In this document: piece by piece, positions 9,589 through 62,513 of the stretch
How the letters are laid out: each line of letters begins with the position of its first letter
How positions within the stretch are numbered: the first letter of the stretch is position 1
Source of the DNA: Rubrivivax sp.
GTDB lineage: Bacteria > Pseudomonadota > Gammaproteobacteria > Burkholderiales > Burkholderiaceae_C
DNA length: 64,000 nt
NCBI GenBank assembly: GCA_030680415.1
Contig: JAUXVE010000066.1
Span: 30,899-94,898, forward strand
Direction: 5' to 3'
Made by a program: the position numbers and the translations under genes
The notes under the pieces: model-generated
What the model was told of the DNA's origin: nothing
Seen by the model: only the letters and a program-made list of their open reading frames with translations
Databases searched by the model: none

Positions 9589-10059
9589 GTGAACAAGCGC
9601 CTGCTGACCCTGACCGTCAACGAACGCGTCGAGCAACATGCGGTGGCCGACAACGCATTGCTGCTGGACGTGCTGCGCGACACGCTGGGCCTGACCGGCA
9701 CCATGCAGGGCTGCGACGGCGGCGAATGCGGCGCCTGCACGGTGCTCGTCGACGACCAGCCGCAGCTGGCCTGCCTGACGCTCGCCGCCACCTGCGCCGG
9801 GCGGCGCATCGAGACCATTGAACACCTCACGCGCAACGGCCGCATGAGCCTCTTGCAGCAAGCCTTTCACGAGCACCTGGGCACCCAGTGCGGCTACTGC
9901 ACGCCGGGCATGGTGATGGCCGCCGAGGCGCTGCTGCGCCGCGTGCCGCAGCCCAGCGACGCGCAGATCCGCGACGGGCTGGCGGGCAACCTGTGCCGCT
10001 GCACCGGCTACGTGAAGATCATCGAGTCCGTGCGCGCGGCGGCGGGAGTGGCGCGATGA
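9589..10059 (+). CDS. hcrC: 4-hydroxybenzoyl-CoA reductase gamma subunit (2x[2Fe-2S])
   Basis: GCDGGECGACT and QCGYCTPG...NLCRCTGY clusters; GAGGA before GTG 9589; first gene of a C-A-B operon. Confidence 0.85.
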   Translation: MNKRLLTLTVNERVEQHAVADNALLLDVLRDTLGLTGTMQGCDGGECGACTVLVDDQPQLACLTLAATCAGRRIETIEHLTRNGRMSLLQQAFHEHLGTQCGYCTPGMVMAAEALLRRVPQPSDAQIRDGLAGNLCRCTGYVKIIESVRAAAGVAR

Positions 10060-12440
10060 GCGGCACCAACACCACCACGCCGGTGCGCGGTGCGGTCGGC
10101 CGGCGCACGCCACTGATCGACGGCATCGAGAAGGTCACCGGCCGCGCGCGCTACACCGCCGACCTGCCGCTGGGCCCGGCGCTGATCGGGCGCATCCTGC
10201 GCAGCCCCGTCGCGCACGGCATCATCCGCGGCATCGACACCACGAAGGCGCGCGCCATCCCGGGGGTGCGGGCCGTCGTCACCGGCGAGGATTTCGCCGC
10301 TCCCTACGGCGTGATCCCGATCGCGCAGAACGAATGGCCGCTGGCGCGCGACAAGGTGCGCTACCGCGGCGAGCCGGTGGCCGCGGTGGCGGCTGTCGAC
10401 GAAGCCACCGCCGAAGCGGCGCTGCGGGCGATCGTGCTCGACATCGAGCCCTTGCCGGCGTACTTCGCCGCCGCCGATGCGCGCGCCGAAGGCGCGGTGC
10501 TGCTGCACGACAACAAGGCCGGCAACATCGAACGCCGCGTCGATCAGGCCTTCGGCGATGTCGACGCCGGCTTTGCAGCGGCCGACCTGGTGCTCGAGCG
10601 CAGCACGAGCTATGCCGAGGTCGCGCACGGTCAGATCGAGCTCAACGCCGCCGTGGCCTGCTACGAGCCCGAGGCCGATCGCCTGACCACGCATTCGGTG
10701 ACGCAGGTGCCCTACTACCTGCACCTGACGCTGGCGCAAGTGCTGGGCATGGACGCCTCGCGCATCCGCGTCGTCAAGCCCTTCGTCGGCGGCGGCTTCG
10801 GCCACCGCGTCGAGCCCTTGAACTTCGAGATGGTCACCGCCGCGCTGGCGCGGGCGGCCGGCGGCACGGTGAGGACGCAGCTCACGCGCGAGGAAGGTTT
10901 CCTCACGCACCGCGGCCGGCCGGCGACCGACATCCGGCTCAGGATCGGCATCAAGCGCTCGGGCGAGATCACCGCCGTCGATTGCGAGATCGTGCAGCGC
11001 GGCGGCGCCTACGGCGGCTACGGGCTGGTGACCATCCTCTACGCCGGCGCGCTGCTGCACGCGCTGTACCGCGTCGGCGCGGTGCGTTACCAGGGCTTTC
11101 GCGTCTACACCAACCTGCCGCCCTGCGGCGCCATGCGCGGCCATGGTGCCGTCGACGCGCGCCACGCCTTCGAGTCGCTGCTCGACGAGATGGCGGGCCA
11201 GCTCGGGCTGGACCCGTTCGCGGTGCGGCGCGCCAACCTGATCGACACGCCCTACCGCACGCTCAACGACCTGCAAGTCAACTCCTACGGCATCCCCGCC
11301 TGCCTGGACTGGGCCGAGCAGGCTTCGGGCTGGGCCACGCGGCGCGGCAGGCCCCCGCGCAGCGACGGTCTCAAGCGCGGCCTGGGCCTGGCCTGCTCTC
11401 ACTACGTCTCGGGGTCGGCCAAGCCGGTGCACTGGAGCGGCGAGCCGCACGCGGTGATCAACCTCAAGCTCGACTTCGACGCCAGTATCACCATTCTCAC
11501 CGGCGCATCCGACATCGGCCAGGGCTCGTCGACGCTGCTGACGCAGGTGGTGGCCGAGGTGCTGATGTTGCCGATGGCGCGCATCCGCGTCGTCGCCACC
11601 GACAGCGTGCTGACGCCCAAGGACAACGGCTCGTACTCGTCGCGCGTGTCGTTCATGGTCGGCAACGCGGCGCTGCGCGCGGCCGAGGCCCTGAAGCGCG
11701 TGCTCGTCGCGGCCGCGGCGCGCAAGCTGGAAGTCACGCCCGACGAGGTCGACTGGGCCGGTGAGCGCTGCGCCGTCGTCGGCACCGACAAGACGCTCGA
11801 CTTCGCGCAGGTCGTCGAGGCCGCGCTGATCGACAGCGGCACGCTCACGGTCAAGGGCGTGTGGTCGACGCCGAAGGAAACGCAGGGCGGCACCTTCCGC
11901 GGCGCCGCGGTCGGTTCGACCGCCGGTTTCTCCTACGCCGCGCAGGTGGTCGAAGTCAGCGTCGACGAGGACACCGGCGTCGTCAAGGTCGAGCAGGTCT
12001 GGGTGGCGCACGACTGCGGTTTCGCGATCAACCCGCTGGCCGTCGAAGGCCAGGTGCAGGGCGCCGTCTGGATGGGCATGGGGCAGGCCCTGTGCGAGGA
12101 GACGCAGTACCACGAGGGCCTGCCGATGCGGCCCAACTTCCTCGACTACCGCGTCCCGACCATCGCCGAGTCGCCACCGATCGAGGTCAAGCTGATCGAG
12201 AGCATGGACCCGCTCGGCCCCTTCGGCGCCAAGGAGGCGAGCGAAGGCGCGCTGCACGGTTTCCCGCCGGCCTTGACGAACGCGATCTGCGACGCCATCG
12301 GCATTCGCCTGACGGCGCTGCCGGCGACACCCGATCGTGTGCTCGACGCGATCCACACCCGCCGGCGCGAGCAGCGGCTGCAGGCACGCCGCGCGGCGGC
12401 GACGACGACGCCGCAGGCCGCCACCAGCGCAGCGAAATAG
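10056..12440 (+). CDS. hcrA: 4-hydroxybenzoyl-CoA reductase alpha (molybdenum cofactor) subunit
   Basis: Xanthine-oxidase-family Mo subunit: VGGGFG, AMRGHG, SYSSRV, GAKEASEG (Hcr-type rather than KGVGE); ATGA overlap with hcrC. Confidence 0.85.
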   Translation: MSGTNTTTPVRGAVGRRTPLIDGIEKVTGRARYTADLPLGPALIGRILRSPVAHGIIRGIDTTKARAIPGVRAVVTGEDFAAPYGVIPIAQNEWPLARDKVRYRGEPVAAVAAVDEATAEAALRAIVLDIEPLPAYFAAADARAEGAVLLHDNKAGNIERRVDQAFGDVDAGFAAADLVLERSTSYAEVAHGQIELNAAVACYEPEADRLTTHSVTQVPYYLHLTLAQVLGMDASRIRVVKPFVGGGFGHRVEPLNFEMVTAALARAAGGTVRTQLTREEGFLTHRGRPATDIRLRIGIKRSGEITAVDCEIVQRGGAYGGYGLVTILYAGALLHALYRVGAVRYQGFRVYTNLPPCGAMRGHGAVDARHAFESLLDEMAGQLGLDPFAVRRANLIDTPYRTLNDLQVNSYGIPACLDWAEQASGWATRRGRPPRSDGLKRGLGLACSHYVSGSAKPVHWSGEPHAVINLKLDFDASITILTGASDIGQGSSTLLTQVVAEVLMLPMARIRVVATDSVLTPKDNGSYSSRVSFMVGNAALRAAEALKRVLVAAAARKLEVTPDEVDWAGERCAVVGTDKTLDFAQVVEAALIDSGTLTVKGVWSTPKETQGGTFRGAAVGSTAGFSYAAQVVEVSVDEDTGVVKVEQVWVAHDCGFAINPLAVEGQVQGAVWMGMGQALCEETQYHEGLPMRPNFLDYRVPTIAESPPIEVKLIESMDPLGPFGAKEASEGALHGFPPALTNAICDAIGIRLTALPATPDRVLDAIHTRRREQRLQARRAAATTTPQAATSAAK

Positions 12441-13433: not shown

Positions 13434-15575
13434 ATGGCCATCTCCCCGGCCACACCTGCCGGCGAGGCTCTTTCCTGTGCAGGCGCCGGCGGCGTCTGGC
13501 AGTGCGACAGCTGCGGCCGGACCAGCGAGGGTTTCGCCTTTCCCTTCGGCCTGTGCCCGCACTGCAGCGGCCAGCTTCGCCGTGTCGACGCCGCGCCACA
13601 GGCCAGCGGCCGGGCGGCGGCGGTCGAAGGCGTGCGCATGGCCTTCGAGATCGAACTCGGTGGCCGCGCCTACTACCAGCGCGCCGCCGCCGAAACCGGC
13701 GACCGCGAACTGCAGCAGCTGTTCGGCCGCTTCGCCCTCATGGAGGGCGAGCACATGGAAACGCTGACGCGCCGCTACCACCTCGACGTGCCGCCGCCGT
13801 CGCCGGCGTTGCGCCGCGAGGTGGCGGCGATCTATGCCGGCGTCGAAGACCAGCCGCACGACCCGGCCAACCTGTTCCGCATCGCGATCGCGCTGGAGCA
13901 GCGGGCGGCGCAGTTCTTCGGCAGCCGCGCCGGGCTCGCCGCCGCCGGCTCGGCCGAGCAGCAGCTGTACCAGGAGCTGGCGGCCGAGGAACACGAACAC
14001 GCCAGCCTGCTGGCCAGCGAACTGGAGCGCTGGCGCAGTGGCCAGGCCGGGCGCTTCAGCACCGCCACGCCGGGGTCCGCGGCGTGGCCGGCCGCCACCG
14101 CCGGCACGCCGCAGGCGGCGGCACCAAGTGCCTCGGCGAACGCGGCCGTGCTGCTGCTCGCCGCGGCCGACACGCAGCACACCGCGCTCGTCTGCGGCAC
14201 CGCCAGCGTCAGTTACGGCGAGCTGCGCGAGCAGGTGGCACGCGCGGCGGCCTGCTGGCGCGCGCGTGGCCTGCACCCCGGCGACCGCATCGCCATCAAG
14301 CTGCCCGACGGCATCGACTGGGTCACGGCCTTCCTGGGTGCGCTGTGGGCCGGCGCGGTGGCGGTGCCGGTCAACCCGCGCGTGCCGGCACCGGAATGGC
14401 AGTACATCCTGGACGAGGCCGGTTTCAGCGTCATCCTGGCCGAGTCGAACGACGACACGCCGACGCCGTGGCGCGAACGCACGCTGCTGGTCGAGGACTT
14501 CCGCCGCGGCGTGCAGGGCGCCGCAGCCGTTGCGGCCTGTGCCGTGGCGCCGAGTGCGCCGGCCTTCTGGTGCCATTCGTCGGGCACTTCGGGCAAGCCC
14601 AAGGCGGTGGTGCACGCGCACGCCTTCGCCCGCCACATCGAACAGGTGTCGAGCGAGGCGCTGGGCATCCGCGCCGACGACCGTCTGTACGCCAGCTCCA
14701 GGCTGTTCTTCTCCTACCCGCAGACGAACAGCCTGTGGGCCGGCCTGAAGCTTGGCGCCTGCGTCATCCTCGACCCGCAGTGGCCCACCGCCGCCGGCGT
14801 GGCTGCCACGGTCGCGGCGCAGCGCCCGACGGTGTTGTTCAGCGTGCCCTCGCTGTACCGCAACCTGCTGCACGAAGGGCTGGCGCCGGCCATTGCCCGG
14901 GCCGGCGTGCGCCTGTGTGTCTCGGCCGGCGAAGCGCTGCCGCCCAGCCTGCGCGACGAGTGGCGGCGGCAGACCGGCCTGGCCATCGCCAACGGCTACG
15001 GTGCGTCGGAGACGCTGGTGCTGGTGATGATCGACCGCGGCGACGCACACGGCTTTGCGCCCTCGCCCGGCGTCGACATCCAGCCGCTGGACGAGGTGCC
15101 TGTCGGCCTGCCGTCGCGCCTGTGCATCCGCGCGCCGACGCTGGCCCTGGGCTACCTCGACCGGCCGCAGGCCCAGGCCGAGAACTTCCGCGACGGCGCC
15201 TTCTGCCCGGCCGACCTCTTCGCCCGCGACGCAAGCGGCGGCTGGCGCTTCGCCGGCCGCGAGGACTCGCTGGTGAAGATCCATGGCCGCTGGGTCAACC
15301 TGGTCGAACTCGAAGAACGCCTGGCGTCGAAGGCGCCCGGCCTGAAGGAGGCGGCCGCGGTGCTGGTGCCCGACGCCGACGGTGTCGACGCCGTGGCCTT
15401 CTTCTTCGCCGCCGCCGACGACGCTGCCGCCCGCGCCGCCTTGCAGGCCTGCGCCAGCGCCCTGCCCCCGCACCAGCGGCCGCGCTGGTGGCATGCGGTG
15501 GAAACCCTGCCGCGCGGCCCCACCGGCAAGTTGCTGCGGCGCAAGTTGCGCGAACTGCACGACCTCATGGGCTGA
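13434..15575 (+). CDS. Fusion: Zn-ribbon + ferritin/rubrerythrin-like domain + aryl-CoA ligase (AMP-binding)
   Basis: CDSC...CPHC; EIELGGRAYY...EGEH and ALEQRAAQFF...EEHEH di-iron helices; then SSGTSGKPKAVVH, YGASET, GREDSLVK, PRGPTGK. Confidence 0.8.
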   Translation: MAISPATPAGEALSCAGAGGVWQCDSCGRTSEGFAFPFGLCPHCSGQLRRVDAAPQASGRAAAVEGVRMAFEIELGGRAYYQRAAAETGDRELQQLFGRFALMEGEHMETLTRRYHLDVPPPSPALRREVAAIYAGVEDQPHDPANLFRIAIALEQRAAQFFGSRAGLAAAGSAEQQLYQELAAEEHEHASLLASELERWRSGQAGRFSTATPGSAAWPAATAGTPQAAAPSASANAAVLLLAAADTQHTALVCGTASVSYGELREQVARAAACWRARGLHPGDRIAIKLPDGIDWVTAFLGALWAGAVAVPVNPRVPAPEWQYILDEAGFSVILAESNDDTPTPWRERTLLVEDFRRGVQGAAAVAACAVAPSAPAFWCHSSGTSGKPKAVVHAHAFARHIEQVSSEALGIRADDRLYASSRLFFSYPQTNSLWAGLKLGACVILDPQWPTAAGVAATVAAQRPTVLFSVPSLYRNLLHEGLAPAIARAGVRLCVSAGEALPPSLRDEWRRQTGLAIANGYGASETLVLVMIDRGDAHGFAPSPGVDIQPLDEVPVGLPSRLCIRAPTLALGYLDRPQAQAENFRDGAFCPADLFARDASGGWRFAGREDSLVKIHGRWVNLVELEERLASKAPGLKEAAAVLVPDADGVDAVAFFFAAADDAAARAALQACASALPPHQRPRWWHAVETLPRGPTGKLLRRKLRELHDLMG

Positions 15576-32852: not shown

Positions 32853-33324
32853 AATCCGCTTCACGCTGAACGGCGTGCAACGCAGCGCCACGGTCGGCAT
32901 CGAGATCAGTGCGCTGCAGCTGCTGCGTGAGGTGATCGGCCTGACCGGCACCAAGTACGGTTGCGGCGAAGGCGAATGCGGCGCCTGCACGATCATCGTC
33001 GACGGCCGCTCGGTCAATGCCTGCCTGCTGTTCGCCGTCGATTGCGACGGCCGCGAGCTGACCACCGTCGAAGGCCTGAGCGGCAACGCGCGGGCGCAGG
33101 CGCTGCAACAAGCCTTCGTCGCGCATGGCGCCGTGCAGTGCGGCTTTTGCACGCCGGGCATGATGGTGCAGGCCACGCACCTGTTGGCCACGCAGCCGCG
33201 GCCCGACGCGGCTGCCGCCAAACGCGCCATCGAGGGCAACCTGTGCCGCTGCACCGGCTACCAGAAGATCGTCGAGGCGATCGTCCAGGCCGGTGAGTCG
33301 CTGGCGGCAGGAGATGCGGCATGA
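32836..33324 (+). CDS. iaaJ: Xanthine-dehydrogenase-family 2x[2Fe-2S] subunit (IaaJ-like)
   Basis: GCGEGECGACT, QCGFCTPG, NLCRCTGY. Confidence 0.78.
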   Translation: MSLTHEIRFTLNGVQRSATVGIEISALQLLREVIGLTGTKYGCGEGECGACTIIVDGRSVNACLLFAVDCDGRELTTVEGLSGNARAQALQQAFVAHGAVQCGFCTPGMMVQATHLLATQPRPDAAAAKRAIEGNLCRCTGYQKIVEAIVQAGESLAAGDAA

Positions 33325-35720
33325 GCGATACCCTGACACGCCCAGCGGCAGGCGCCAGCCTGATCGGCCAGCGCATCCCGAAGATGGATGCGCCGGAAAA
33401 GGCCAGCGGCAAGACGCGTTACATCCACGACATCAGCCTGCCGGGCCAGTTGCACGCGGCGATCCTGCGCTCGGCCAGGGTGCACGCGCGCATCGTTCGC
33501 ATCGACACCACGGCCGCGCGCGCACTGCCTGGCGTGCACTGCGTGCTCACCGCGGCCGATGTACCCGACCAGCGGCCGATCGGCGTGGCCAAGGATCACT
33601 TGCCGCTGAAAAGCGACCGCGTGCGCAGCGAGCGCGACGAGATCGCTGCGGTGGCCGCCGACAGCGAGGCCATTGCGCTGCAGGCGCTGCGCCTGATCGA
33701 GGTCGAGTACGAAGACCTGCCCGTGGTGCTTGATGCCCAAGCCGCGCTCGCCCCCGGTGCGCCGTTGGTGCATCCGCCGATCGCAGGCGCCGCCCCGGGC
33801 GGGCCGGTGGGGCTGGCCGGCAAGGCCGACAACATCGCGATGCGCTTCGACTACAGCCATGGCGACGTGGTGCAGGCCGAAAGCCAGTCCGACCTGGTGG
33901 TCGAAGACGTCTTCGAGCTGCACTACGTGACGCACTGCTGCATGGGTGTGTCGGGCGTGATCGCCGAATTCGACGCCAAGGGCAACCTGCTGCTGTATTC
34001 GAACACCCAGGTGCCGTTCCTGCACAAGCGCGAGTTCGCCGAGATCCTGGGCATGGACCCGGCGCGCATCCGCATCATCCAGCCGCCGATCGGCGGCGGC
34101 TTCGGCTCCAAGCTCGACATCTACCCTTTCGAGGTGATCTGCGTGTACTTGGCGCGCGCCACCGGCCGGCCGGTGCGACTGGTGTTCAGCCGCGAGGAGG
34201 AATTCCTGGCCTCGCCGACCCGGCAAACGGTGCGGCTGACGCTGCGCTCGGGCTGCAAGCGCGACGGCACCTTGAGCTTCCGCACGGTGCACACGCTGCA
34301 CGACAACGGCGCCTATACCTCGTGGGGCGCCACCACGCCGTTCGTGATGATGCAGACCTTCTCCTCGCTGTACCGGGTGCCGCACTGCGACTACCACACG
34401 GTGGCGGTGTATTCGAACAACCCCTACGCCGGCTCGTTCCGCGGCTACGGCAACCTGCAGGCCACCTTTGCCGTCGAGGCGCACATGGACCGCATGGCCG
34501 AAGCCTTGGCGCTGGACCCGCTCGAGTTTCGGCTCAAGAACGCGCAGCTGGCGGGCGAAGTGACCGGGCAGGGCATGGTGTTTCGCAGCTGCGGCTTCCA
34601 GGATTGCCTGCGCACTGCAGCCGGGCGCAGCGACTTCCAGCGCCTGCACCGCGAGTACGCAGCGCGCTGCCATGAATCCGGCCCGATCAAGCGCGGCATC
34701 GGCGTCGCTTCGATGCTGCATGTGGGCGGCGGCGCGAAGATCTACCCGTCCGACGGCTGCGGCACCATCCTCAAGCTCGACGACTTCGGCCATGTCACGC
34801 TGATCACCGGCGCGTCCGAGATCGGCCAGGGCTCGGAGACCGTGCTGTCGCAGCTGGTGTGCGAGGAGCTGGGGCTGCCGATGTCGGCGGTGACGGTGGT
34901 CAACAACGACACCGACATCACGCCCTGGGACGTCGGCGTTCACGCCAGCCGCACCACCTTCATCGCCGGCAACTCGGCGATCGGCGCAGCGCGCAAGGCC
35001 AGGGCCAAGATCCTGTCGGCTGCAGCCACGCGGTTCGAGTGCCCGGCCGAGTCGCTGGCCATGCGTGGTGGCCGCATCGTGCGTGCGCAGAGCGGCGAGC
35101 CACTGATCGATCTGGCGCGTTTCCTGCGCGGGCTGCACTTCAGCGACCGCGCCGAGCTGGTGATGACCAGCTTCTATTACGAGCCGCCCAGCGTGCACCA
35201 GGACAAGAACTACAAGGGCGATGTCTCGGCCGCCTACGCCTGGGCGGCACAGGTGGTCGAGGTCGAGGTCGACAGCGACACCGGGGTCGTGCGCATGATC
35301 AAGGTCACAGCGGCGCACGATGTCGGCCGCGTGCTCAACCGGCTGGGCATCGAAGGCCAGATCGAAGGCGGCATCGTGATGGGCCAGGGTTACGCGCTGA
35401 CCGAGAACCTGCAGGTCGAAGGCGGCCGCATCCGCAACCCCAACTTCCGCGACTACAAGCTGATCACGGCGCCCGAGATCCCCGAGATGGACATCGCCTT
35501 CATCGAGTCGATGGATGGCGAAGGCCCGCAGGGAGCCAAGGGCGTCGGCGAGGCGCCGGCGATCTGCATCGCGGCAGCCACGGCGAACGCGATCTACAAC
35601 GCCACCGGGGTGCGCATCACCAGCCTGCCGTTCACGCCGGAGCGGGTCTATCGGGCGCTGCACGGCGCACTACCCGCGCTGCGGCCGACACCCAGGGCAC
35701 CCACAAGGGAGGCGCCGTGA
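33321..35720 (+). CDS. iaaK: Xanthine-dehydrogenase-family molybdenum subunit (IaaK-like)
   Basis: [31 protein letters not shown]. Confidence 0.78.
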
Positions 35721-52530: not shown

Positions 52531-53232
52531 TCATCCCGTGTGCAGGAAGTGCCGGCTCGTGCCGTCGAGGACGAGGCAGGTCAGCACGCCGCTGCGGTGG
52601 GCCCCGGTGTCGATGCCGATGCGATTCGGGCGCAGTTGTGGCCGTTCGGAGATGCTGTGCCCATGCACGACGACCGCGCCGTGATCGAGCGTCGACTCGA
52701 GGAACGGCGCGCGGATCCACATCAGGTCGTGCGCGGCCTGCCGTTCGAGTGGCACCCCCGGTCGGACCCCGGCGTGGACAAAGAAGTAGTCGCCGCAATG
52801 GTGGCAATAGTCGGTCGAGCGCAGGAAACTGAGGTGCGCCGACGGCAGCACCGCGTCGAAAGCGTCGCGCAGGGCAGCAACAGTTGCGTTCTCGCGTCGA
52901 CGGCGGCCGGCGACGTCGACGCCGTAGTCGGCCAGCGTGTCGAGACCGTCGTAGTCGAACCAATGGCGGCCGGCATCGAGGTCGCCGTCGAGAAAGCGCA
53001 GCCAGAGGTCCTCATGGTTGCCGCGCAGCGTGATGCGGGTAAAGCCCGGTGGCGGGGCGGCAACCATCGTCTCGACGACGCGCCTGGAGTCGGCGCCCCG
53101 GCTCACGTAGTCGCCCAGATAGACCAGGCGCCGCTGGCGCGCCGGCCGCCGCGCCGCGTCGGCTTCGATCGAGACCAGAAGGGCCTGCAGCAAGTCGAAG
53201 GGGCCATGGATGTCACCGATCGCGTAGATCAC
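52531..53232 (-). CDS. Calcineurin-like metallophosphoesterase (PPP/PrpA-like)
   Basis: GDIHG, GDYVSRG, RGNHE, VHAG, VHGH, GIDTG. Confidence 0.87.
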   Translation of the reverse strand: MIYAIGDIHGPFDLLQALLVSIEADAARRPARQRRLVYLGDYVSRGADSRRVVETMVAAPPPGFTRITLRGNHEDLWLRFLDGDLDAGRHWFDYDGLDTLADYGVDVAGRRRRENATVAALRDAFDAVLPSAHLSFLRSTDYCHHCGDYFFVHAGVRPGVPLERQAAHDLMWIRAPFLESTLDHGAVVVHGHSISERPQLRPNRIGIDTGAHRSGVLTCLVLDGTSRHFLHTG

Positions 53233-53255
53233 GGTCCCGGCCGCCGTGCTCGCGC

Positions 53256-53855
53256 CTATCTCGGCGTTCGTCGCGGCTCCTTCGTGTCGGCGCCGTGGCC
53301 GGTCCAGCGCTGGAACAGGTCGTGCTCGATGCCGACCTGGTCGAGCGCCTTGCCCAGGGTCTGGTGAATGAGGTCCATGATCGTGCGTGGCCGGTGGTAG
53401 AACGCGGGCATCGGCGGCAGCAGCACCGCGCCACAGTCGGCCGCGCGTGTCATCAACTCCAGGTGTCCCCTGTGCAGCGGTGTCTCGCGCACCAGCAGCA
53501 CCAGCTTGCGCCCCTCCTTGAGCTGTACGTCGGCGGCACGCACGACCAGGTTGTAGGTGAACGAATTGGCGATCGCCGACAGCGTCTTCACCGTGCAGGG
53601 CGCGACGATCATGCCGCGTGTGCGGAACGATCCGCTCGCCACCGCGGCGCCGATGTCCTTGTTGCTGTAGACGATGTCGGCCAGCGCACGCACCTCTTCC
53701 AGCGTGTCGTCGGTCTCGATCGTCAGGTTCATGCCGGCCGCCTCGCTGAGGATCAGGTGCGTCGGCTGGCCCAGGCTCTTGAGCACGCGCAGCAGTTCGA
53801 CGCCGTAGATGACGCCGGTGGCGCCGGTGATGGCCACGATCAGGGGCAAGGTCAT
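53256..53855 (-). CDS. ubiX: Flavin prenyltransferase
   Basis: VAITGATG, IASGSF-like VASGSF, APCTVKTL, RAADVQLKEGR, RETP, PPMPAFY. Confidence 0.92.
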   Translation of the reverse strand: MTLPLIVAITGATGVIYGVELLRVLKSLGQPTHLILSEAAGMNLTIETDDTLEEVRALADIVYSNKDIGAAVASGSFRTRGMIVAPCTVKTLSAIANSFTYNLVVRAADVQLKEGRKLVLLVRETPLHRGHLELMTRAADCGAVLLPPMPAFYHRPRTIMDLIHQTLGKALDQVGIEHDLFQRWTGHGADTKEPRRTPR

Positions 53856-53883
53856 GAGTGGATCCTGTGCACGGGCATGGGGT

Positions 53884-54570
53884 TCAGGTGGCGAGCGCGG
53901 GCTGCTGCGCATCGACCGACTCGATGACCGGAATCCCGGCCGCCGCCAGCGCCGCGGCGACCTCGAGCACGTCGGCAGCGTGGAAACGGACGATGATCTT
54001 GTGCTCGACGAGGTCGTTGTCGATCTCCGCGTCGTGGCGGCCCAGCATCGGGTAGATCGCCTGCAGGACGGCGCCGGCGCCCTCGGCCACTTCGGCGATG
54101 CGCCCGATGACGCCGGCTCCGAGCCTGACGGGCCCGGTGGTGATGCCGCTGCAGCGCTGCCAGGCGCCCAGGCAATGCGCCGCGATCTGGAAGATCTCGT
54201 TGGCCGAGATCACGCCGACGACCCGATCGCCCTCGAGCACCGGGAACTGCGCGACGCCGAGTTCCCGACCCTTGCGCAGGCAGTATTCGATGGTGTCGCC
54301 GGCCTGAACCGTGCCCGGGTTGCGCACCATGACGTCGCGAACCCGCAGCCGGGTGACGAAGTAGTTGAACTCGTCGCTGTCCTGCGTGCGCAGCACGAAG
54401 TGGCCCATGCGCAACAGGTTGGCGCGTGTGACGAGGCCGCGAAGCCGACCGTCGTCGACCACCGGCAAGGCATGCAGGTTGTTCTCGCTGAGGATGCGCT
54501 TGGCCTCGGAGACCAGCGTGTCGCTCGCGATCGTCAACGGATCGGTCTGCATCCAGGTGCGCACGATCAT
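53884..54570 (-). CDS. ppsC: Phenylphosphate synthase gamma subunit (CBS pair + ACT-like)
   Basis: MIVRTWMQTDP...SEAKRILSENNLHALPVVDDGRLRG closely resembles remembered Thauera PpsC. Confidence 0.85.
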   Translation of the reverse strand: MIVRTWMQTDPLTIASDTLVSEAKRILSENNLHALPVVDDGRLRGLVTRANLLRMGHFVLRTQDSDEFNYFVTRLRVRDVMVRNPGTVQAGDTIEYCLRKGRELGVAQFPVLEGDRVVGVISANEIFQIAAHCLGAWQRCSGITTGPVRLGAGVIGRIAEVAEGAGAVLQAIYPMLGRHDAEIDNDLVEHKIIVRFHAADVLEVAAALAAAGIPVIESVDAQQPALAT

Positions 54571-54582
54571 CGCCGGCTCCTT

Positions 54583-55824
54583 TCAGCCCAAGGCCCGCGA
54601 CAGGCGATACAGACGCACGAACTCGTCGACGGCGACGCGTGCGAACTCGGGTGTGTACAAGTGAAGGTCGAATTCCTTGATGCGGGCCCGATCGTCGATG
54701 CGCTCCTTCAGGCGCGCGACGAAAGCGGCGTTGGCCTGCGGGTCGTGGATCGGGCGGCCGGCGCGGTCGAGCGACGACCAGCCCTGCAGCGGCACGAGGA
54801 AGCTCCACTCGCCGCGCGCCGCGTTGAGCCGCTCGGCAATGACGTCGGCGGCCTGGCGCAGTTCGTCGGCAGTGGTGCGCACCTGCACCCGAAGTGCGTC
54901 CTGCACGTACTGCACGCGGTCCTTCGTCTTGTCCAGCATATCGGCGCGGCCGCCGTAGGACAGGATGTCCAGCCCGCAGGGCGCCAGCACGGTCGGGATG
55001 CCGGCGGCGGCCGCCGCCTTCAGCCGGTCCGGCCCCGGGTCGCGGTTGCCCTTGAACAGGTGCTCCATGACGCCGCCGATGCAGATGTCGACCACGCCCT
55101 GGAAGGCGCCGTCGCGGATCATCTCCTCCATCGCCTTGTCGCCCTTGCCCTGGGCATGGCAGACGATCGGCGTGAAGCCCGCCTGCTCGAGCATGCCAAT
55201 GGCGGCCTGCACCGCCATCTCGCCGAAGCCGAAGGACGAGATCGCCACGCAGGGCTGGTCGAAGCGGAAGTCGATGCCCAGCGTCATCTCGACCATGCCG
55301 CAGATGGCGCCCACCGCGTTGACGATCTGCGCCTTCAGCAGCGGGTTCATCTTGACGATGTCGAGCACCGTGTGGTGCATCGTGATGTCGCGCGTGCCGA
55401 CGTACTGGTCGATGTAGGCCGGGTGCGCGGCCATCGGCGAGGCCATCAGCTTCGGCAAGCCGAAGGGCAGCGTCTTCATGATCGACGTGGCCACCAGTGT
55501 CGCGGTGCCGCCGCCGATGCCGATGATGCCGTGTACCCGGCCCGCCTGCACCAGCTCGGCGACGATGGCCGCCGCGCCGCGGATCTGGTTGCGCGTGGCG
55601 GTGTCGCGGTCGCTGCGGTACTTCTCGCGCACCACCTCGATCGGCAGGCCGCCGCGCGCCGCCACGTCCTCGGTGCGGATGTCGCCCGGGAACGGCGGTG
55701 GCTCTTCCATGCTGAAGTCGAGCAGGATCGGCTCGTGCCCGCGCCCGGCGATGAGGTCCTTGACGAAGGCGATGTCTTCGCCGCGCGTGTCCAGGTTACA
55801 GACGATGACGATGCCTTTTCTCAT
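54583..55824 (-). CDS. Tm-1-like ATP-binding domain protein (UPF0261)
   Basis: NLDTRGED, GIGGGTAT, LPFGLPKLM, SSFG, HAQGKG, APCGLD, PLQGWSSLD; start at ATG 55824 or GTG 55836. Confidence 0.8.
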   Translation of the reverse strand: MRKGIVIVCNLDTRGEDIAFVKDLIAGRGHEPILLDFSMEEPPPFPGDIRTEDVAARGGLPIEVVREKYRSDRDTATRNQIRGAAAIVAELVQAGRVHGIIGIGGGTATLVATSIMKTLPFGLPKLMASPMAAHPAYIDQYVGTRDITMHHTVLDIVKMNPLLKAQIVNAVGAICGMVEMTLGIDFRFDQPCVAISSFGFGEMAVQAAIGMLEQAGFTPIVCHAQGKGDKAMEEMIRDGAFQGVVDICIGGVMEHLFKGNRDPGPDRLKAAAAAGIPTVLAPCGLDILSYGGRADMLDKTKDRVQYVQDALRVQVRTTADELRQAADVIAERLNAARGEWSFLVPLQGWSSLDRAGRPIHDPQANAAFVARLKERIDDRARIKEFDLHLYTPEFARVAVDEFVRLYRLSRALG

Positions 55825-55846
55825 GCCGACCGCCACCGGGTTCGCG

Positions 55847-57352
55847 TCACTTGGCCTTCTTGGCTTCGGGCCGCGTCAGCCGGTTGATCATGCCGGCCAC
55901 CGGGCTGGCGCCGGCAAAGCCGTACTCGCTCCAGCGATCCGACACCTTCTGCAGCACGGCGCGGTCCATGAAGATCTCGCTCGGCTTGTTCTTCCACTCG
56001 AACGGCGTGCAGGCGTCGAGGATGATGCGGCTGGTGATCTCGCGCGCCTCGATCGGCAGCCCGGGGTCGAGCGGCGTCGAGCGGCCGCGGTCGATGATCT
56101 GCGCCGAGCGCTTGGGGTCGAAGCGCGTGGCCAGCGCCCACCAGATGCGGTCCCAGTCGTCGGCCTCGATGTCGTGGTCGACCGTGATCACGCCCTTGAC
56201 GCCGTAGTGCCCGGTGGTGCTGGCGATGACGGCGTTGCCGACGTGGTTCGAGTGCCCCGGGTACATCTGCTTGACCGAGACCACGACCCAGAAGCGGCCG
56301 CAGGCCTCGGGCGGGATGTAGACGCTCTGGATGCCCGGCACCTTCATCGTCTCGAGGTCGTGCCACAGCGTGGCGGTGCGGTTGAGCGACTGGATCATGT
56401 GGATGTCGTTGATCGGCTTGCCCACCGTCGTCGACCACATCACCGGCTTGTTGCGATGCAGGATGCGCTTGATGCGCAGCACCGGCTTCGGATAGTCCTT
56501 GCCCTTGTTGCCGGAGTAGTAACCCGTGTACTCGCCGAACGGCCCTTCGTCCATCAGCTCGTTGGGGTCGATGAAACCCTCGGCGATGATCTCGGCGTTG
56601 GCCGGCAGCGTCAGGCCGGTGACCTCGGACTTGAACACCGGCACCGGCCGGCCGCGCAGCGAGCCGGCGATGTCGTATTCGTCGACCTGCGCGCTGACCA
56701 GCGTCGAGGCGGCCAGGAACAGCACCGGGTCGCAGCCGACGACAGCCGCCGCGGGCATCAGCTCGCCGCGCTCCTGGTATTTCTTCATGTGCATGTCGCC
56801 ATGCTTGCCCTTGATGATCTGCGAGCCCAGGATGTCCCTGGCGAGCACCTGCGAGCGGTAGGTGCCCAGGTTCGTCCAGCCGGTGTCGGGGTCTTGCGTG
56901 ACCAGGAAGCCGGAGGTGACGAAGAAGCGGCCGCCGTCGTCCGGATAGAACCAAGGCGAGGGGAATTTCTCGATGTCGATGTCGGCGCCGGTGATCTGGT
57001 TCTCCATCACCGGCGGGTTGTCCACATGCACCGGCTTGACCATCTGCTTGGTGGTCAGCTCCATCCACTTCTTCGACAGCTGGCTCATCGACAGCGAGGG
57101 GTCCTGCTCGAGCGCGATCGCCAGCCGCTGCGCGGTGGTGAAGGCGCTGGTGAAGACCGGGATGTCGTAGCCCTTGACGTTCTCGTACAGCAGCGCCGGG
57201 CCCTTCTGTTCCTCGTTGACCTTCGAGACGTGGCAGAGCTCGAACTTCCAGTCGACCTCGGTCTTCACGCGGTGCAGTTGCCCGCTGGCCTCGAGTGCCG
57301 CGATGTAGCTGCGCAGGTCGTCGATGGGCCGGATGTCGTGGCGTGCATTCAT
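55847..57352 (-). CDS. ppcB: UbiD-family prFMN (de)carboxylase, phenylphosphate carboxylase beta-like
   Basis: EVDWKFELCHVSK, NLGTYR, EGPFGEYTGYY, RTATLW, GRFWVVVSVKQMYPGH, GRSTPLDP resemble remembered PpcB; located in a pps operon. Confidence 0.78.
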   Translation of the reverse strand: MNARHDIRPIDDLRSYIAALEASGQLHRVKTEVDWKFELCHVSKVNEEQKGPALLYENVKGYDIPVFTSAFTTAQRLAIALEQDPSLSMSQLSKKWMELTTKQMVKPVHVDNPPVMENQITGADIDIEKFPSPWFYPDDGGRFFVTSGFLVTQDPDTGWTNLGTYRSQVLARDILGSQIIKGKHGDMHMKKYQERGELMPAAAVVGCDPVLFLAASTLVSAQVDEYDIAGSLRGRPVPVFKSEVTGLTLPANAEIIAEGFIDPNELMDEGPFGEYTGYYSGNKGKDYPKPVLRIKRILHRNKPVMWSTTVGKPINDIHMIQSLNRTATLWHDLETMKVPGIQSVYIPPEACGRFWVVVSVKQMYPGHSNHVGNAVIASTTGHYGVKGVITVDHDIEADDWDRIWWALATRFDPKRSAQIIDRGRSTPLDPGLPIEAREITSRIILDACTPFEWKNKPSEIFMDRAVLQKVSDRWSEYGFAGASPVAGMINRLTRPEAKKAK

Positions 57353-57400: not shown

Positions 57401-58537
<1,137 letters not shown>

Positions 58538-58538
58538 C

Positions 58539-60374
58539 TCAGCGCGTGATGGTGACGGCGCCGGTCGAACCGTCGACGCGGATCATCATGCCGGTCCTGA
58601 TGATCTTCGTCGCATGCCCGGTGCCCACCACCGCGGGCATGCCGTATTCGCGGCAGACGATCGCCGCGTGGCTCATCACGCCGCCAACGTCGGTGATGCA
58701 GGCGCCGATCTTGGCGAAGGCCGGTGCCCACGACGGCGAGGTCGTCGGCGCCACCAGGATCTCGCCTTCGAGCAGTTCACCCACTTCGCCGACCGTGCGG
58801 CACACCCTGGCCTTGCCTTCGGCGATGCCGGGGCTGCCGGCAAAGCCCTTCAGTTCGGTGATGGTGTCGGGGTCGGCCACCTCCTGCACCGAAGCCCAGT
58901 CGGCGAGCGACTTGTTGGTCACGCCCCAGAGCACGATGGTGAAAGGCTCTTGAATCACCTCGGGGGCGGTGCCGATGGCTGGCGGCGGGCTCCACTCCTT
59001 GAACTTCGCCATCACGCCCTTGCGCCACTCGATCTCGGCCGGCCAGGTCTGCGTGCCGCGCGGCGTGACACCGGTGGCCCAGGCGGTGACGATGTCCCAC
59101 AAGGCCGACTTGATCTCGTCGCGGCGCAGCAGCCAGATGTCCTCGACATCGGCGATGACGCCGTGCTCCTGCATGATCGCGCCGACCTCGCGCATCTTGT
59201 TCCAGAACACGGAGTGGAACCAGTGTTCGACGTAGAAGAGGTGGTTCTCGACGTACGGGAACACGGTCTTGGCGCAGCCCAGCAGCTCGTCGAACTGCGC
59301 CAGGTCCTCGGGCTTTTCGATCAGCGCGCGGTACTCGGCAGTGATGCGGTCGCGCTCGGCGCGCACCTTCTCGGTCGGGCGGTCGATCGAGGCGCCGGAC
59401 TTCAACTTGCCGATGTAGGTCTGGATGCCCGACAGCGGCACATCCATCTGGTCGTTCCACGAGCGGTCGTGGTGGAACCAGCCGGTGCCGGTGGAGATGT
59501 TGAACCAGGGTTCGCGGGCCAGGCTCAGCGAGCTCAGCCAGTCCATGCCCTTGGGCAGCTTCTTCAGCGCCTCCTCGACCACCGCGAAGCGCGGGCTGAA
59601 GGCCACGACCTCGTCGACGCCGAGTTCGATCGCCCGGCGCGCGAGCTTCTTGAGCTCCTCGTCGGGCTGGTACATGATGACGTCGATGCCCGAGATCATC
59701 TGCGTCACCCGCTGCGCCGGGATGTTGGGGAATAGCTTCTGGGCGAAGTCGAGGAAGAACACGTAAGCGGCGTAGCCGAGGTTCAGGAACTCGAAGTGGT
59801 ACTGCCAGCACTTGATGCCGAGGTTGATCAGGTCGTCGTAGTTCTTCAGCAGGTGGTAGCCCTTGGATTCGCCCAGTGCGTCGGTCACCACCGAGATGTC
59901 CTCCATCTCGGCCAGGCGCGGGATCTGCAGCGCCTCGAGCTCGCGGATGGTGGCCTCCATCTTGACCTTCCACCTGGCTTCGAGCGCGTCCCAGTTCTTG
60001 TAGTAGTGGCCGGCGCGCTCCATGAAGTGCGGCACCCGGGCGCCGATCTCGGCGCCGTCCTTGACCGGCACCGGCGAGATGTAGACGTAGCCGTTGATGA
60101 TGCGGTGGTCGACGCCGCGCACCGGTGGCACCATGAAAATGCGGTTGTTGAACTGCGACAGCGCCAGGAACCAGGCCTCGTCCCAGATGGTGTCGAAGGG
60201 ATAAAGCGGCTCCGGATAGTGCAGCCCGTCGTAGAACCAGAACGTGTCCTTCTCGTACTGCTGGCGCACCGCATCGTCGGTGACGAACTGGTATTGGTAT
60301 GGATACATCCGCTCCCAGCCTTCGGTGCCGGGGATCGTCTTGGCCTTCACGTCGTGCGGAACCGGAAATTTCAT
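58539..60374 (-). CDS. ppsA: Phenylphosphate synthase alpha subunit (phospho-His)
   Basis: MKFPVPHD...TIPGTEGWERMYPY, DGLHYPEP, GGVMSHAAIVCRE; very close to remembered Thauera PpsA, 611 aa. Confidence 0.92.
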   Translation of the reverse strand: MKFPVPHDVKAKTIPGTEGWERMYPYQYQFVTDDAVRQQYEKDTFWFYDGLHYPEPLYPFDTIWDEAWFLALSQFNNRIFMVPPVRGVDHRIINGYVYISPVPVKDGAEIGARVPHFMERAGHYYKNWDALEARWKVKMEATIRELEALQIPRLAEMEDISVVTDALGESKGYHLLKNYDDLINLGIKCWQYHFEFLNLGYAAYVFFLDFAQKLFPNIPAQRVTQMISGIDVIMYQPDEELKKLARRAIELGVDEVVAFSPRFAVVEEALKKLPKGMDWLSSLSLAREPWFNISTGTGWFHHDRSWNDQMDVPLSGIQTYIGKLKSGASIDRPTEKVRAERDRITAEYRALIEKPEDLAQFDELLGCAKTVFPYVENHLFYVEHWFHSVFWNKMREVGAIMQEHGVIADVEDIWLLRRDEIKSALWDIVTAWATGVTPRGTQTWPAEIEWRKGVMAKFKEWSPPPAIGTAPEVIQEPFTIVLWGVTNKSLADWASVQEVADPDTITELKGFAGSPGIAEGKARVCRTVGEVGELLEGEILVAPTTSPSWAPAFAKIGACITDVGGVMSHAAIVCREYGMPAVVGTGHATKIIRTGMMIRVDGSTGAVTITR

Positions 60375-60456: not shown

Positions 60457-60472
60457 TGCATAGGCCGTGCCA
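60457..60472 (-). promoter_or_regulatory. sigma54 -24/-12 promoter of the pps/ppc operon
   Basis: Minus strand TGGCAC-GGCCT-ATGCA, 82 bp upstream of ppsA. Confidence 0.85.

Positions 60473-60776: not shown

Positions 60777-62512
<1,736 letters not shown>

Positions 62513-62513
<1 letters not shown>

Follow-up and report, generated by a model that had tools for sequence, protein, structure and literature searches.

A probable Geobacter-type phenol operon with a single UbiD carboxylase in a Rubrivivax-like bacterium, and a candidate role for its UPF0261 protein

How might phenylphosphate be carboxylated by an operon that encodes only one UbiD subunit, and what does the UPF0261 protein encoded beside that subunit contribute? 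The locus lies in a window of 64,000 nucleotides, the whole stretch of DNA analysed. The host is a Rubrivivax-like betaproteobacterium with 4-hydroxybenzoyl-CoA reductase and class I benzoyl-CoA reductase: HcrA (1176 bits) and HcrC are encoded within the window and BcrB (776 bits) is encoded elsewhere in the genome. These downstream enzymes, the domain assignments and the identity to the canonical ppsABC-ppcBDAC cluster indicate that the region is very probably a Geobacter-type ("single-UbiD") operon whose products activate and carboxylate phenol anaerobically. An earlier, sequence-only reading took it for a strong candidate for an undescribed enzyme system. The operon type has in fact been described already, and here it occurs in a Rubrivivax-like bacterium; ppcB-only clusters are on record for Geobacter metallireducens and Desulfatiglans anilini (PMC6114531), the former with the same gene order at Gmet_2099-2105.

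Gene content and control of the operon

The minus strand carries, in order, ppsA, ppsB, one PpcB-type UbiD gene, the UPF0261 gene, a CBS gene (ppsC), ubiX and a metallophosphoesterase gene, and a XylR-type sigma-54 activator gene diverges from the pps operon on the plus strand:

60777-62513, plus strand: XylR/DmpR-type sigma-54-dependent activator (XylR_N, V4R, AAA+ and HTH_8; Pfam, NCBIfam)
60458-60472, minus strand: sigma-54 promoter-like -24/-12 element, TGGCAC-N5-ATGC, about 85 nt upstream of ppsA
58539-60374, minus strand: ppsA, phenylphosphate synthase alpha-like subunit with the His-carrying mobile domain (PF00391; NF006152, 1214 bits)
57401-58537, minus strand: ppsB, phenylphosphate synthase beta-like subunit with the ATP-binding PPDK_N domain (PF01326, 393 bits)
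55847-57352, minus strand: single PpcB-type UbiD (prFMN) carboxylase gene (TIGR02724 phenyl_P_beta, 565 bits, cut-off 469)
54583-55836, minus strand: UPF0261 (MarK/Tm-1 family) gene (PF06792 and PF23189, Pfam)
53884-54570, minus strand: ppsC-like CBS-pair protein (PF00571, two stretches)
53256-53855, minus strand: ubiX, flavin prenyltransferase making prFMN for UbiD (NF004685, 241 bits; TIGR00421, 235 bits)
52531-53232, minus strand: calcineurin-like metallophosphoesterase, weakly ApaH/PrpE-like (PF00149)

This layout bears out the sequence-only placement of the genes, including UPF0261 between the ppcB-type UbiD and ppsC. The accompanying description of PpsA, PpsB and PpsC as near-Thauera suits PpsA, which is 85% identical to its counterpart in the canonical cluster, but fits more loosely for PpsB (70%) and for the CBS protein (58% to canonical PpsC over its full length). 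A single UbiD subunit on the carboxylase side was also read correctly: the TIGR02724 match is the sole UbiD of the operon, carries the motifs NLGTYR, KHG and EGPFGE, and shares 53.5% identity with canonical PpcB and 31% with PpcA. ppsA starts at an ATG at 60374 with the ribosome-binding site AGGAGA. The UPF0261 start is likely at 55824 (MRKGIV...), which gives a product of 413 aa, the length of the database copy.

The metallophosphoesterase falls within the interval 52531-57352 on which the sequence-only reading centred and is distinct from ppsC; ppsB, ppsA and the activator gene fall just outside that interval. Since the metallophosphoesterase gene follows ubiX in just 21 of 80 related loci and is absent from many long contigs, it is an optional final gene and not a core component.

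The operon appears to be controlled by the divergent sigma-54 XylR-type activator, whose gene is kept, again in divergent orientation, in 48 of the 80 related loci. Its top NCBIfam match is the phenol-degradation regulator MobR (612 bits, under the cut-off of 999), and it is probably a phenol sensor. The -24/-12 element was located by a pattern match with one mismatch and by reading the letters directly. Across the window this pattern shows no enrichment, occurring 69 times where about 89 occurrences would be expected, so only its position speaks for the element.

Homology to characterised enzymes suggests a route in which UbiX would supply prFMN to UbiD and the single PpcB-type UbiD would add CO2 para to the oxygen to form 4-hydroxybenzoate. 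The product would then undergo CoA ligation and dehydroxylation by HcrCAB, encoded in the same window.

Absent carboxylase subunits and conservation of the locus

The sequence-only claim that ppcA, ppcC and ppcD are missing stands both in the host's own genome (4.76 Mb, 167 contigs, 96% complete) and in all 26 other genomes searched that carry the same operon. In the own genome, the phenyl_P_alpha model for PpcA (TIGR02723) matched the operon UbiD, at just 205 bits against a cut-off of 565, and one other gene. That second match was rejected as PpcA because the gene is the ubiquinone UbiD (NF008175, 796 bits). The phenyl_P_gamma model for PpcC (TIGR02725) had no match in the own genome, and phenyl_P_delta, for PpcD, found only a KdsC-like gene (113 bits; cut-off 282). 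The 26 related genomes gave the same outcome for TIGR02723 and nothing for TIGR02725 save one 21.5-bit match in a single genome (G411); matches to the PpcD model were again confined to KdsC-like genes, usually one per genome and at 90-148 bits across the own and related genomes. The same searches in a canonical genome (G145), used as a positive control, recovered PpcA at 1040, PpcD at 305 and PpcC at 124 bits.

PpcA is absent from 31 of 31 genomes with a UPF0261 orthologue, and PpcC and PpcD are likewise absent from all 27 of those tested for them (the own genome and 26 others). The three canonical PpcA genomes carry only a UPF0261 paralogue, 28-29% identical, which in the one genome compared (G145) does not share a contig with the ppc cluster. 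The distribution of the UPF0261 orthologue is thus complementary to that of PpcA, PpcC and PpcD.

The arrangement is not unique: of 306 species-level genomes, the 80 best share the order ppsA-ppsB-ubiD-UPF0261-CBS-ubiX. Most of these are betaproteobacterial, and all 80 are MAGs or uncultured assemblies, with zero isolates. The sequence-only reading named a lack of conservation of UPF0261 with pps operons among its grounds for refutation, and it passes on this point: in the 80 loci the gene immediately follows that for UbiD on every contig long enough to show it (UbiD was found in 73, the CBS gene in 76 and ubiX in 70). Among loci with enough upstream sequence, none lacks ppsAB. Median identity across the loci is 89% for UbiD (range 83-93%) and 85% for UPF0261 (80-89%; 80 species), 77% for PpsB and 70% for the CBS protein. 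In Anaeromyxobacter MAGs, PpsA falls to about 70%, yet UbiD stays at 84% and UPF0261 at 82%. UPF0261 is under very strong purifying selection along its whole length, including D16, T17, G203 and H227.

The UPF0261 protein and its possible roles

The sequence-only view that this family has hardly any known bacterial role is out of date. MarK (Saro_1862; PDB 9MPY) of Novosphingobium aromaticivorans is a UPF0261 kinase that phosphorylates phenolic hydroxyl groups while converting ATP to ADP (Hall et al., 2025; PMC12624787). It is the sole characterised member of the family, and its known activity runs only in the forward, kinase direction. K16, in the ATP-site motif D14-T15-K16, is needed for fast kinase activity, H348 binds the ketone group, and the phenol-pocket residues G195, H219 and H304 are more than 90% conserved among MarK homologues (PMC12624787).

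The operon protein is homologous to MarK over its full length in both sequence (E = 9e-45 against 9MPY) and fold. Its top Foldseek matches are 9MPY and Tm-1, at a probability of 1.00 (TM about 0.56 for 9MPY), and the structural alignment with MarK gives about 29% identity. D16, T17 and H227, the counterparts of MarK D14, T15 and H219, are kept in 81 of 81 orthologues, and G203 (MarK G195) in 80 of 81. Because G203 and H227 are also kept in distant UPF0261 paralogues whose gene neighbourhoods are of sugar type, they are signs of an intact family core and do not speak for phenol binding. Pocket loops 290-297 and 309-320 of the structure model have pLDDT below 50.

Other positions set the operon clade apart. 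The ATP-site motif reads D16-T17-R18, with Arg at the MarK K16 position in all 81 orthologues, whereas distant paralogues retain Lys; the MarK H304 position is Asp or Gln by alignment and never His in the operon clade. As both changes depart from otherwise family-wide residues, they suggest an altered, non-standard kinase chemistry. T196 is replaced by Phe and H348 by Leu, the latter in keeping with a substrate that lacks a para-carbonyl group. The PEP-hydrolase-like TIM-barrel (PF09370), fused or adjacent as in Tm-1, is absent from all operon proteins, and the neighbours of UPF0261 are UbiD and the CBS protein.

The tentatively preferred reading, held with slightly less than even confidence, is that UPF0261 may be a MarK-family phosphotransferase partner of a homomeric prFMN carboxylase that handles phenylphosphate in place of PpcD, PpcA and PpcC. 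It would bind phenylphosphate, take off the phosphoryl group, hand it to water or a nucleotide, and pass the bound phenolate to the UbiD carboxylase, thereby standing in for the HAD-type delta subunit PpcD and making PpcA and PpcC needless. This reading draws on the presence of UPF0261 where the three subunits are absent, on the greater conservation of UbiD and UPF0261 than of PpsB or the CBS protein, on the movement of phosphate between ATP and a phenolic oxygen by MarK, and on the full-length homology to MarK, with D16, T17, G203 and H227 kept, H348 replaced by Leu and the K16 and H304 positions altered throughout the clade. It also fits G. metallireducens, where a 418-aa gene sits in the same order, and the view that ppcB-only enzymes need a different mechanism. 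For the part of the single-UbiD carboxylase missing since 2009, UPF0261 is the leading candidate. The sequence-only proposal of a new carboxylase subunit or phenylphosphate-binding partner is likewise a reasonable hypothesis.

Several observations count against a phosphotransferase partner. MarK is known as a forward kinase, a search for UbiD-UPF0261 fusion proteins found none, G203 and H227 are family-wide, the pocket loops are of low confidence, and the UPF0261 identity of the G. metallireducens gene comes from size and position. Moreover, two refolded UbiD-type subunits of D. anilini produced 4-aminobenzoate from phenylphosphoamidate with no UPF0261, although the P-N bond of that substrate is labile and two different UbiD subunits were required (PMC6114531; PMC7500099). 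A more specific version is quite unlikely: UPF0261 might be a reverse aryl-phosphate phosphotransferase docked on the homomeric carboxylase, transferring phosphate from phenylphosphate to ADP so that ATP is regenerated, and releasing enzyme-bound phenolate into the UbiD active site. If true, the net cost of anaerobic phenol activation would drop from two ATP equivalents to one, and the form common in nature would be a two-protein carboxylase and not the four-subunit enzyme of Thauera.

The foremost rival, itself unlikely, is that UPF0261 is an additional, less costly kinase of phenol (phenol + ATP -> phenylphosphate + ADP) working alongside the PpsABC dikinase, for instance when phenol concentrations are high, while a homomeric PpcB-type enzyme cleaves and carboxylates phenylphosphate alone. 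Exactly such an ADP-forming reaction is the shown activity of MarK, its D-T and G/H core residues are preserved in the operon protein, and in the MarK study about 25% of the aromatic-kinase genomes had MarK together with a kinase of the dikinase type (PMC12624787). However, a redundant kinase leaves unexplained both the match of the orthologue with the absence of PpcA, PpcC and PpcD and its rank among the operon's two most conserved genes. The ATP-contacting Lys is always Arg and H304 is lost, unlike in MarK and its homologues, and ppsAB is never dispensed with where enough upstream sequence is available.

A non-catalytic role is very doubtful. Here UPF0261 would be a nucleotide-sensing regulatory or scaffold subunit that stabilises or gates the carboxylase or synthase, much as Tm-1 works by ATP-bridged binding and not by catalysis; the clade's two changed family-wide residues (K16 to Arg, H304 absent) and the neighbouring CBS protein, a nucleotide-sensing domain type, would suit it. 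Very strong purifying selection that takes in D16, T17, G203 and H227 argues otherwise, and the system would still have no phosphoryl-removing activity. Least probable is a cofactor role, as a dimethylallyl monophosphate kinase for UbiX or an ATP-dependent prFMN loading or maturation factor for UbiD: UPF0261 shares an operon with ubiX, at least one locus, L041, has a Nudix gene inserted beside it and inserts of matching size occur in about 15, and helper proteins such as LpdD can be needed for UbiD activation (PMC10865409), but the canonical cluster carries no orthologue despite its ubiX and two or three UbiD genes, UPF0261 always adjoins ubiD and is parted from ubiX by the CBS gene, and the known substrates of the family are aromatic phenols only.

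Comparison with known phenol-activating systems

The Thauera aromatica type consists of PpcABCD and PpsABC (Schuhle and Fuchs, 2004, summarised in PMC6114531). It shares with the window operon the PpsA, PpsB and PpsC homologues, a PpcB-type UbiD, UbiX, sigma-54 XylR-type control and the downstream 4-hydroxybenzoyl-CoA route. Unlike in T. aromatica, neither operon nor genome encodes an alpha (second UbiD), a gamma (10 kDa) or a delta (HAD phosphatase-like) subunit, a UPF0261 gene is present instead, and the UbiD resembles PpcB only at the identity given above. The D. anilini phe cluster has ppsA and ppsB, a single ppcB, no ppcC and a ubiX-like gene (PMC6114531; PMC7500099). It differs in gene order and content, with ligase and Hcr genes inside it, and a second ppcB-like gene and a KdsC-like gene elsewhere in the genome are proposed to encode the alpha and delta subunits (PMC6114531; PMC7500099). 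The carboxylase mechanism was concluded to differ from that of Thauera (Xie and Muller, 2018, PMC6114531; Xie et al., 2020, PMC7500099).

MarK resembles the operon protein in its two-domain UPF0261 architecture and in being encoded in an aromatic catabolic operon, and in both pathways the phenolic oxygen is phosphorylated ahead of the carboxylation step. The partners differ, being a prFMN UbiD carboxylase and a dikinase here and a biotin-dependent AcvCDE-type carboxylase for MarK.

The phenol operon of G. metallireducens was reportedly the subject of work by Schleinitz et al. in 2009. The Geobacter type is also defined by phenol-induced expression and by phenylphosphate carboxylase activity without 14CO2 exchange. 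The host here is betaproteobacterial, has a class I ATP-dependent benzoyl-CoA reductase and is not a strict anaerobe; its PpsA shares 85% identity with the Thauera type, and no ppcD homologue lies nearby. In strain GS-15, Gmet_2099-2105 comprise a Fis-type regulator, ppsA-like and ppsB-like genes, a ppcB carboxylyase, a 418-aa hypothetical, a CBS gene and a UbiX-like gene (Butler et al., 2007, supplementary gene table; PMC1924859). Gmet_2103, the unannotated gene between ppcB and the CBS gene (PMC1924859), is by size and position presumably a UPF0261 gene. Both operons have ppcB alone, with no ppcA or ppcC reported for G. metallireducens, and their gene order is identical, with a sigma-54/Fis-type regulator adjoining each.

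Gene content and the Thauera-type subunits

Seven minus-strand genes separated by short spacers run from 60374 down to 52531. At a window G+C of ~70%, reading frames were chosen by codon-position G+C together with domain matches. The UPF0261 gene probably starts at 55824, because the public copy of its protein has 413 aa. A TGGCAC-N5-ATGC element lies ~85 nt upstream of ppsA.

Genes of the operon and its regulator
60777-62513, divergent from the operon: XylR_N/V4R sigma-54 activator
58539-60374, minus: ppsA, PEP-utilizers mobile domain; NF006152, 1214 bits
57401-58537, minus: ppsB, PPDK_N
55847-57352, minus: UbiD-family gene, TIGR02724 phenyl_P_beta, 565 bits (cut-off 469)
54583-55836, minus: UPF0261 gene, PF06792 and PF23189
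53884-54570, minus: CBS-pair gene, PF00571
53256-53855, minus: ubiX, NF004685 and TIGR00421
52531-53232, minus: calcineurin-like metallophosphoesterase, PF00149

The canonical Thauera-type cluster of a control genome (G145) has the order ppsA-ppsB-ppsC-ppcB-ppcD-ppcA-ppcC-ubiD-like-ubiX. The sequence-only reading had called the window's PpsA, PpsB and PpsC close to those of Thauera, which holds for PpsA (85% identical to the control's), but the likeness is looser for PpsB (70%) and for the CBS protein against PpsC (58%). UbiD is 53.5% identical to PpcB and 31% to PpcA. That reading had also described an operon with one UbiD subunit and no ppcA, ppcC or ppcD, which is confirmed, and whole-genome searches give the same absence. 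The window's genome has one other UbiD gene only, that of the ubiquinone pathway; it gives no match to PpcC (gamma), and for PpcD (HAD-type delta) only a KdsC-like gene (113 bits against a cut-off of 282). Absence from this genome alone is weak evidence because the assembly is 96% complete. None of 26 further operon-carrying genomes has PpcA, PpcC or PpcD above the family cut-offs, and the control scores for all three.

Among 401 species sampled evenly across the order, PpcA occurs in one and an orthologue of the UPF0261 gene, its operon-linked counterpart, in three others and the window's genome; among 251 species of the control's family, PpcA occurs in three and the orthologue in one. PpcA and the orthologue occur together in no genome of either sample. 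The single-UbiD operon and the Thauera-type subunits are mutually exclusive. PpcA-bearing genomes have only a UPF0261 paralogue, 28-29% identical, which in the control lies on a contig other than that of the ppc cluster. UPF0261 matches are either ~85% or at most 37% identical, and the operon gene therefore forms a sharply bounded orthologous group. One operon-carrying genome has a distant PpcA-like UbiD gene (G411:C36:14799-16468; 344 bits, below the cut-off) adjoining a weak PpcC-like small ORF (21.5 bits), a pair that probably belongs to another UbiD system, one that includes a small subunit.

The window's UbiD protein contains the metal-site His as well as the motifs NLGTYR and EGPFGE, residue roles being assumed to follow Fdc1. 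At the position of Fdc1 H191, which we take to be the Mn-binding His of UbiD enzymes, it has His (KHG), where canonical PpcB has Arg (KRG) and canonical PpcA has Leu; the canonical proteins (L088:13245-14669 and L088:11086-12600) come from one cluster. On this one-cluster comparison, the single-UbiD enzyme seems to resemble ordinary prFMN enzymes more closely than either Thauera-type subunit does. Its closest structural relative, PDB 7PDA (PhdA, phenazine-1-carboxylate decarboxylase), is uninformative on PpcB.

Spread of the operon and its hosts

The UPF0261 protein has >1300 relatives in the database; identity is 85-100% for the best 120, of which every one with an organism name comes from MAGs. 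In a species-level genome collection, ~306 genomes have a relative of the gene. The best 80 loci from 306 genomes, mainly in Burkholderiales and Rhodocyclales MAGs (e.g. Rubrivivax, Ideonella, Rhizobacter, Ramlibacter and Sulfuritalea) with a few in Anaeromyxobacter MAGs, were searched by tblastn with the window proteins as queries. The suggested co-localisation of UPF0261 and pps genes is borne out: the regulator and ppsA-ppsB-ubiD-UPF0261-CBS-ubiX keep their order wherever the contig is long enough. CBS is found in 76/80 loci, UbiD in 73/80, UbiX in 70/80, PpsB in 65/80 and PpsA in 62/80, with median identities to the window of 89% for PpsA and UbiD, 85% for UPF0261, 82% for UbiX, 77% for PpsB and 70% for CBS. 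The metallophosphoesterase, considered as a PpcD substitute, is rejected as a core component because only 21/80 loci have it.

The whole operon is present at three loci of Anaeromyxobacter (Myxococcota) MAGs (L063, L065 and L078), where identity to the window is 83-85% for UbiD, 81-82% for UPF0261, 69-71% for PpsA and 55-59% for CBS. This pattern points to horizontal transfer of an operon whose genes are unevenly constrained or of mosaic origin.

Some loci carry an insert between the UPF0261 and CBS genes. At L041:11236-11781 this is a gene for a 181-aa, weakly NudE-like Nudix hydrolase that overlaps the UPF0261 stop codon; an insert of 550-590 bp occurs in ~15 loci (L018, L020, L034, L050 and L064 among them), of which the one in L041 was read. 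The 786-bp insert of L010 contains no convincing ORF. Two MAGs, CAVPNN01 (L072 and L075) and JAPLQT01 (L067 and L086), each have the operon, or its UPF0261-CBS-ubiX part, twice, on separate contigs, which reflects either a genuine duplication or a bin that mixes strains.

The window also encodes 4-hydroxybenzoyl-CoA reductase (HcrA, 1176 bits, at ~10056-12440; HcrC, 248 bits) and an aryl-CoA ligase. The molybdenum hydroxylase gene at 33321-35720, placed by an earlier note in an iaa operon, is the wrong gene for HcrA. Adjoining hcrCAB, a benzoate-CoA-ligase-family gene (13434-15575, plus strand) has at its N-terminus a ~200-aa domain matching the ferritin/rubrerythrin-like end of NF009413 (244 bits), an unusual fusion. 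Another note on the window held that central ring reduction has been lost. Across the whole genome this fails for the B subunit of class I benzoyl-CoA reductase, which is intact on another contig (G000:C20:26001-27236; TIGR02260, 776 bits, above cut-off) and present in 5/5 related genomes tested. The occurrence of the single-UbiD operon thus extends beyond energy-limited strict anaerobes; it is widespread in betaproteobacteria with this reductase, many of them wastewater and groundwater MAGs.

The UPF0261 protein and its possible role

The claim that the UPF0261 family has essentially no assigned bacterial function no longer holds. The closest PDB sequence match of the window protein is 9MPY (E = 9e-45, full length), which is MarK of Novosphingobium aromaticivorans (Hall et al., 2025, PMC12624787). 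MarK phosphorylates the phenolic hydroxyl of acetovanillone, 4-hydroxyacetophenone and related compounds, converting ATP to ADP, and this is reported as the domain's first catalytic activity; phenylphosphate is nowhere mentioned in the paper (PMC12624787). Modelled with AlphaFold2 (mean pLDDT 75.7), the window protein has full-length structural matches to MarK and tomato Tm-1 only. MarK's named residues were mapped onto 81 orthologues.

MarK residues and their counterparts in the operon clade
D14 and T15, ATP site: D16 and T17, invariant
K16, ATP site: R18, invariant
G195, hydrogen bond to phenolic oxygen: G203, 80/81
H219, hydrogen bond to phenolic oxygen: H227, invariant
T196, hydrophobic side of pocket: Phe
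H304, pi-stacking: His in none
H348, binds ketone oxygen: Leu

Two distant paralogues (L089:7059-8351 in G446 and L090:7081-8322 in G145; 28-37% identical) retain D-T-K, G195, H219 and H304. One has genes for a class II aldolase, a gluconolactonase and a sugar ABC transporter as neighbours; around the other, the genes checked include none from an aromatic pathway. The family's substrates are therefore not limited to aromatics, and the retained residues mark a family core without demonstrating phenol binding, which weakens pocket residues as proof of such binding, since G195 and H219 are kept even beside sugar-related genes. Changes at K16 and H304 are seen in the operon clade alone, which makes this clade the exception.

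By homology to characterised enzymes, PpsAB, stimulated by PpsC, would make phenylphosphate, UbiX would make prFMN and the PpcB-type UbiD would carboxylate. On the best reading, held tentatively and with almost as much confidence as doubt, the UPF0261 protein may take the phosphoryl group off phenylphosphate and pass phenolate to a homomeric UbiD carboxylase. The phosphoryl acceptor would be water or ADP; if ADP, one ATP would be recovered. The conserved UPF0261 gene is a concrete candidate for the operon's missing component. Two results count against phosphoryl removal. A concatenated query scored on its UPF0261 part, which reaches close relatives only, found no UbiD-UPF0261 fusion, its sole match being one 508-aa chimera with TPR repeats. 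In Desulfatiglans anilini, two refolded UbiD subunits alone turned phenylphosphoamidate into 4-aminobenzoate, a result qualified by that substrate's labile P-N bond.

A parallel phenol kinase, which would share MarK's activity and its kept D-T, Gly and His positions, is unlikely: the K16 and H304 changes fit altered chemistry better than a plain MarK copy. They fit loss of catalysis equally well, as a non-catalytic nucleotide-binding partner would have it; we consider such a partner distinctly improbable. Cofactor supply or maturation is very doubtful.

Comparison with known systems

PpcB-only phenylphosphate carboxylation is a question reportedly raised by Geobacter work of 2009 and taken up by Desulfatiglans work of 2018 (PMC6114531): can the enzyme do without the missing subunits, and what pays for the ATP it consumes? 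Xie and Muller (2018, PMC6114531) describe a ppcB-only D. anilini cluster with no ppcC, whose carboxylase activity could not be measured, and conclude, citing Geobacter work, that its mechanism is unlike Thauera's. Butler et al. (2007, PMC1924859) named Gmet_2100-2102 the phenol operon of G. metallireducens.

Gmet_2099-2105 (Butler et al. 2007, supplementary table)
Gmet_2099: Fis-family regulator
Gmet_2100: top match T. aromatica PpsA
Gmet_2101: PpsB-like
Gmet_2102: carboxylyase, top match T. aromatica PpcB
Gmet_2103: hypothetical, 1257 bp (418 aa), top match in Haloarcula
Gmet_2104: CBS protein
Gmet_2105: UbiX-like

The gene order is that of the window, with a UPF0261-sized gene at the UPF0261 position, and from size and position in the gene table we infer that Gmet_2103 is the orthologue. 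The literature search found no paper linking UPF0261 with phenylphosphate carboxylation, or Tm-1-like proteins with UbiD. The operon type is already in the literature (Gmet_2099-2105, D. anilini) and the UPF0261 gene's part in it is not; the proposal of an undescribed system falls for the operon. Overall, what the sequence-only reading observed is confirmed, and its interpretation is partly supported.

A single gene of the operon lacks an assignment, and the first activity found in its family is the transfer of a phosphoryl group to a phenolic oxygen. Together with the operon's spread and its exclusion of Thauera-type subunits, this makes the mechanism question reducible to three or four proteins, and the outcome touches both the energetics of anaerobic aromatic degradation and UbiD enzymes as CO2-fixing catalysts for phenols. 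The operon is a new, betaproteobacterial representative of a known type. In the Thauera enzyme, as one account has it, delta turns phenylphosphate into bound phenolate, which an alpha-beta-gamma core then carboxylates (PMC6114531); the window's system is without delta, alpha and gamma, and has the UPF0261 gene in their place.
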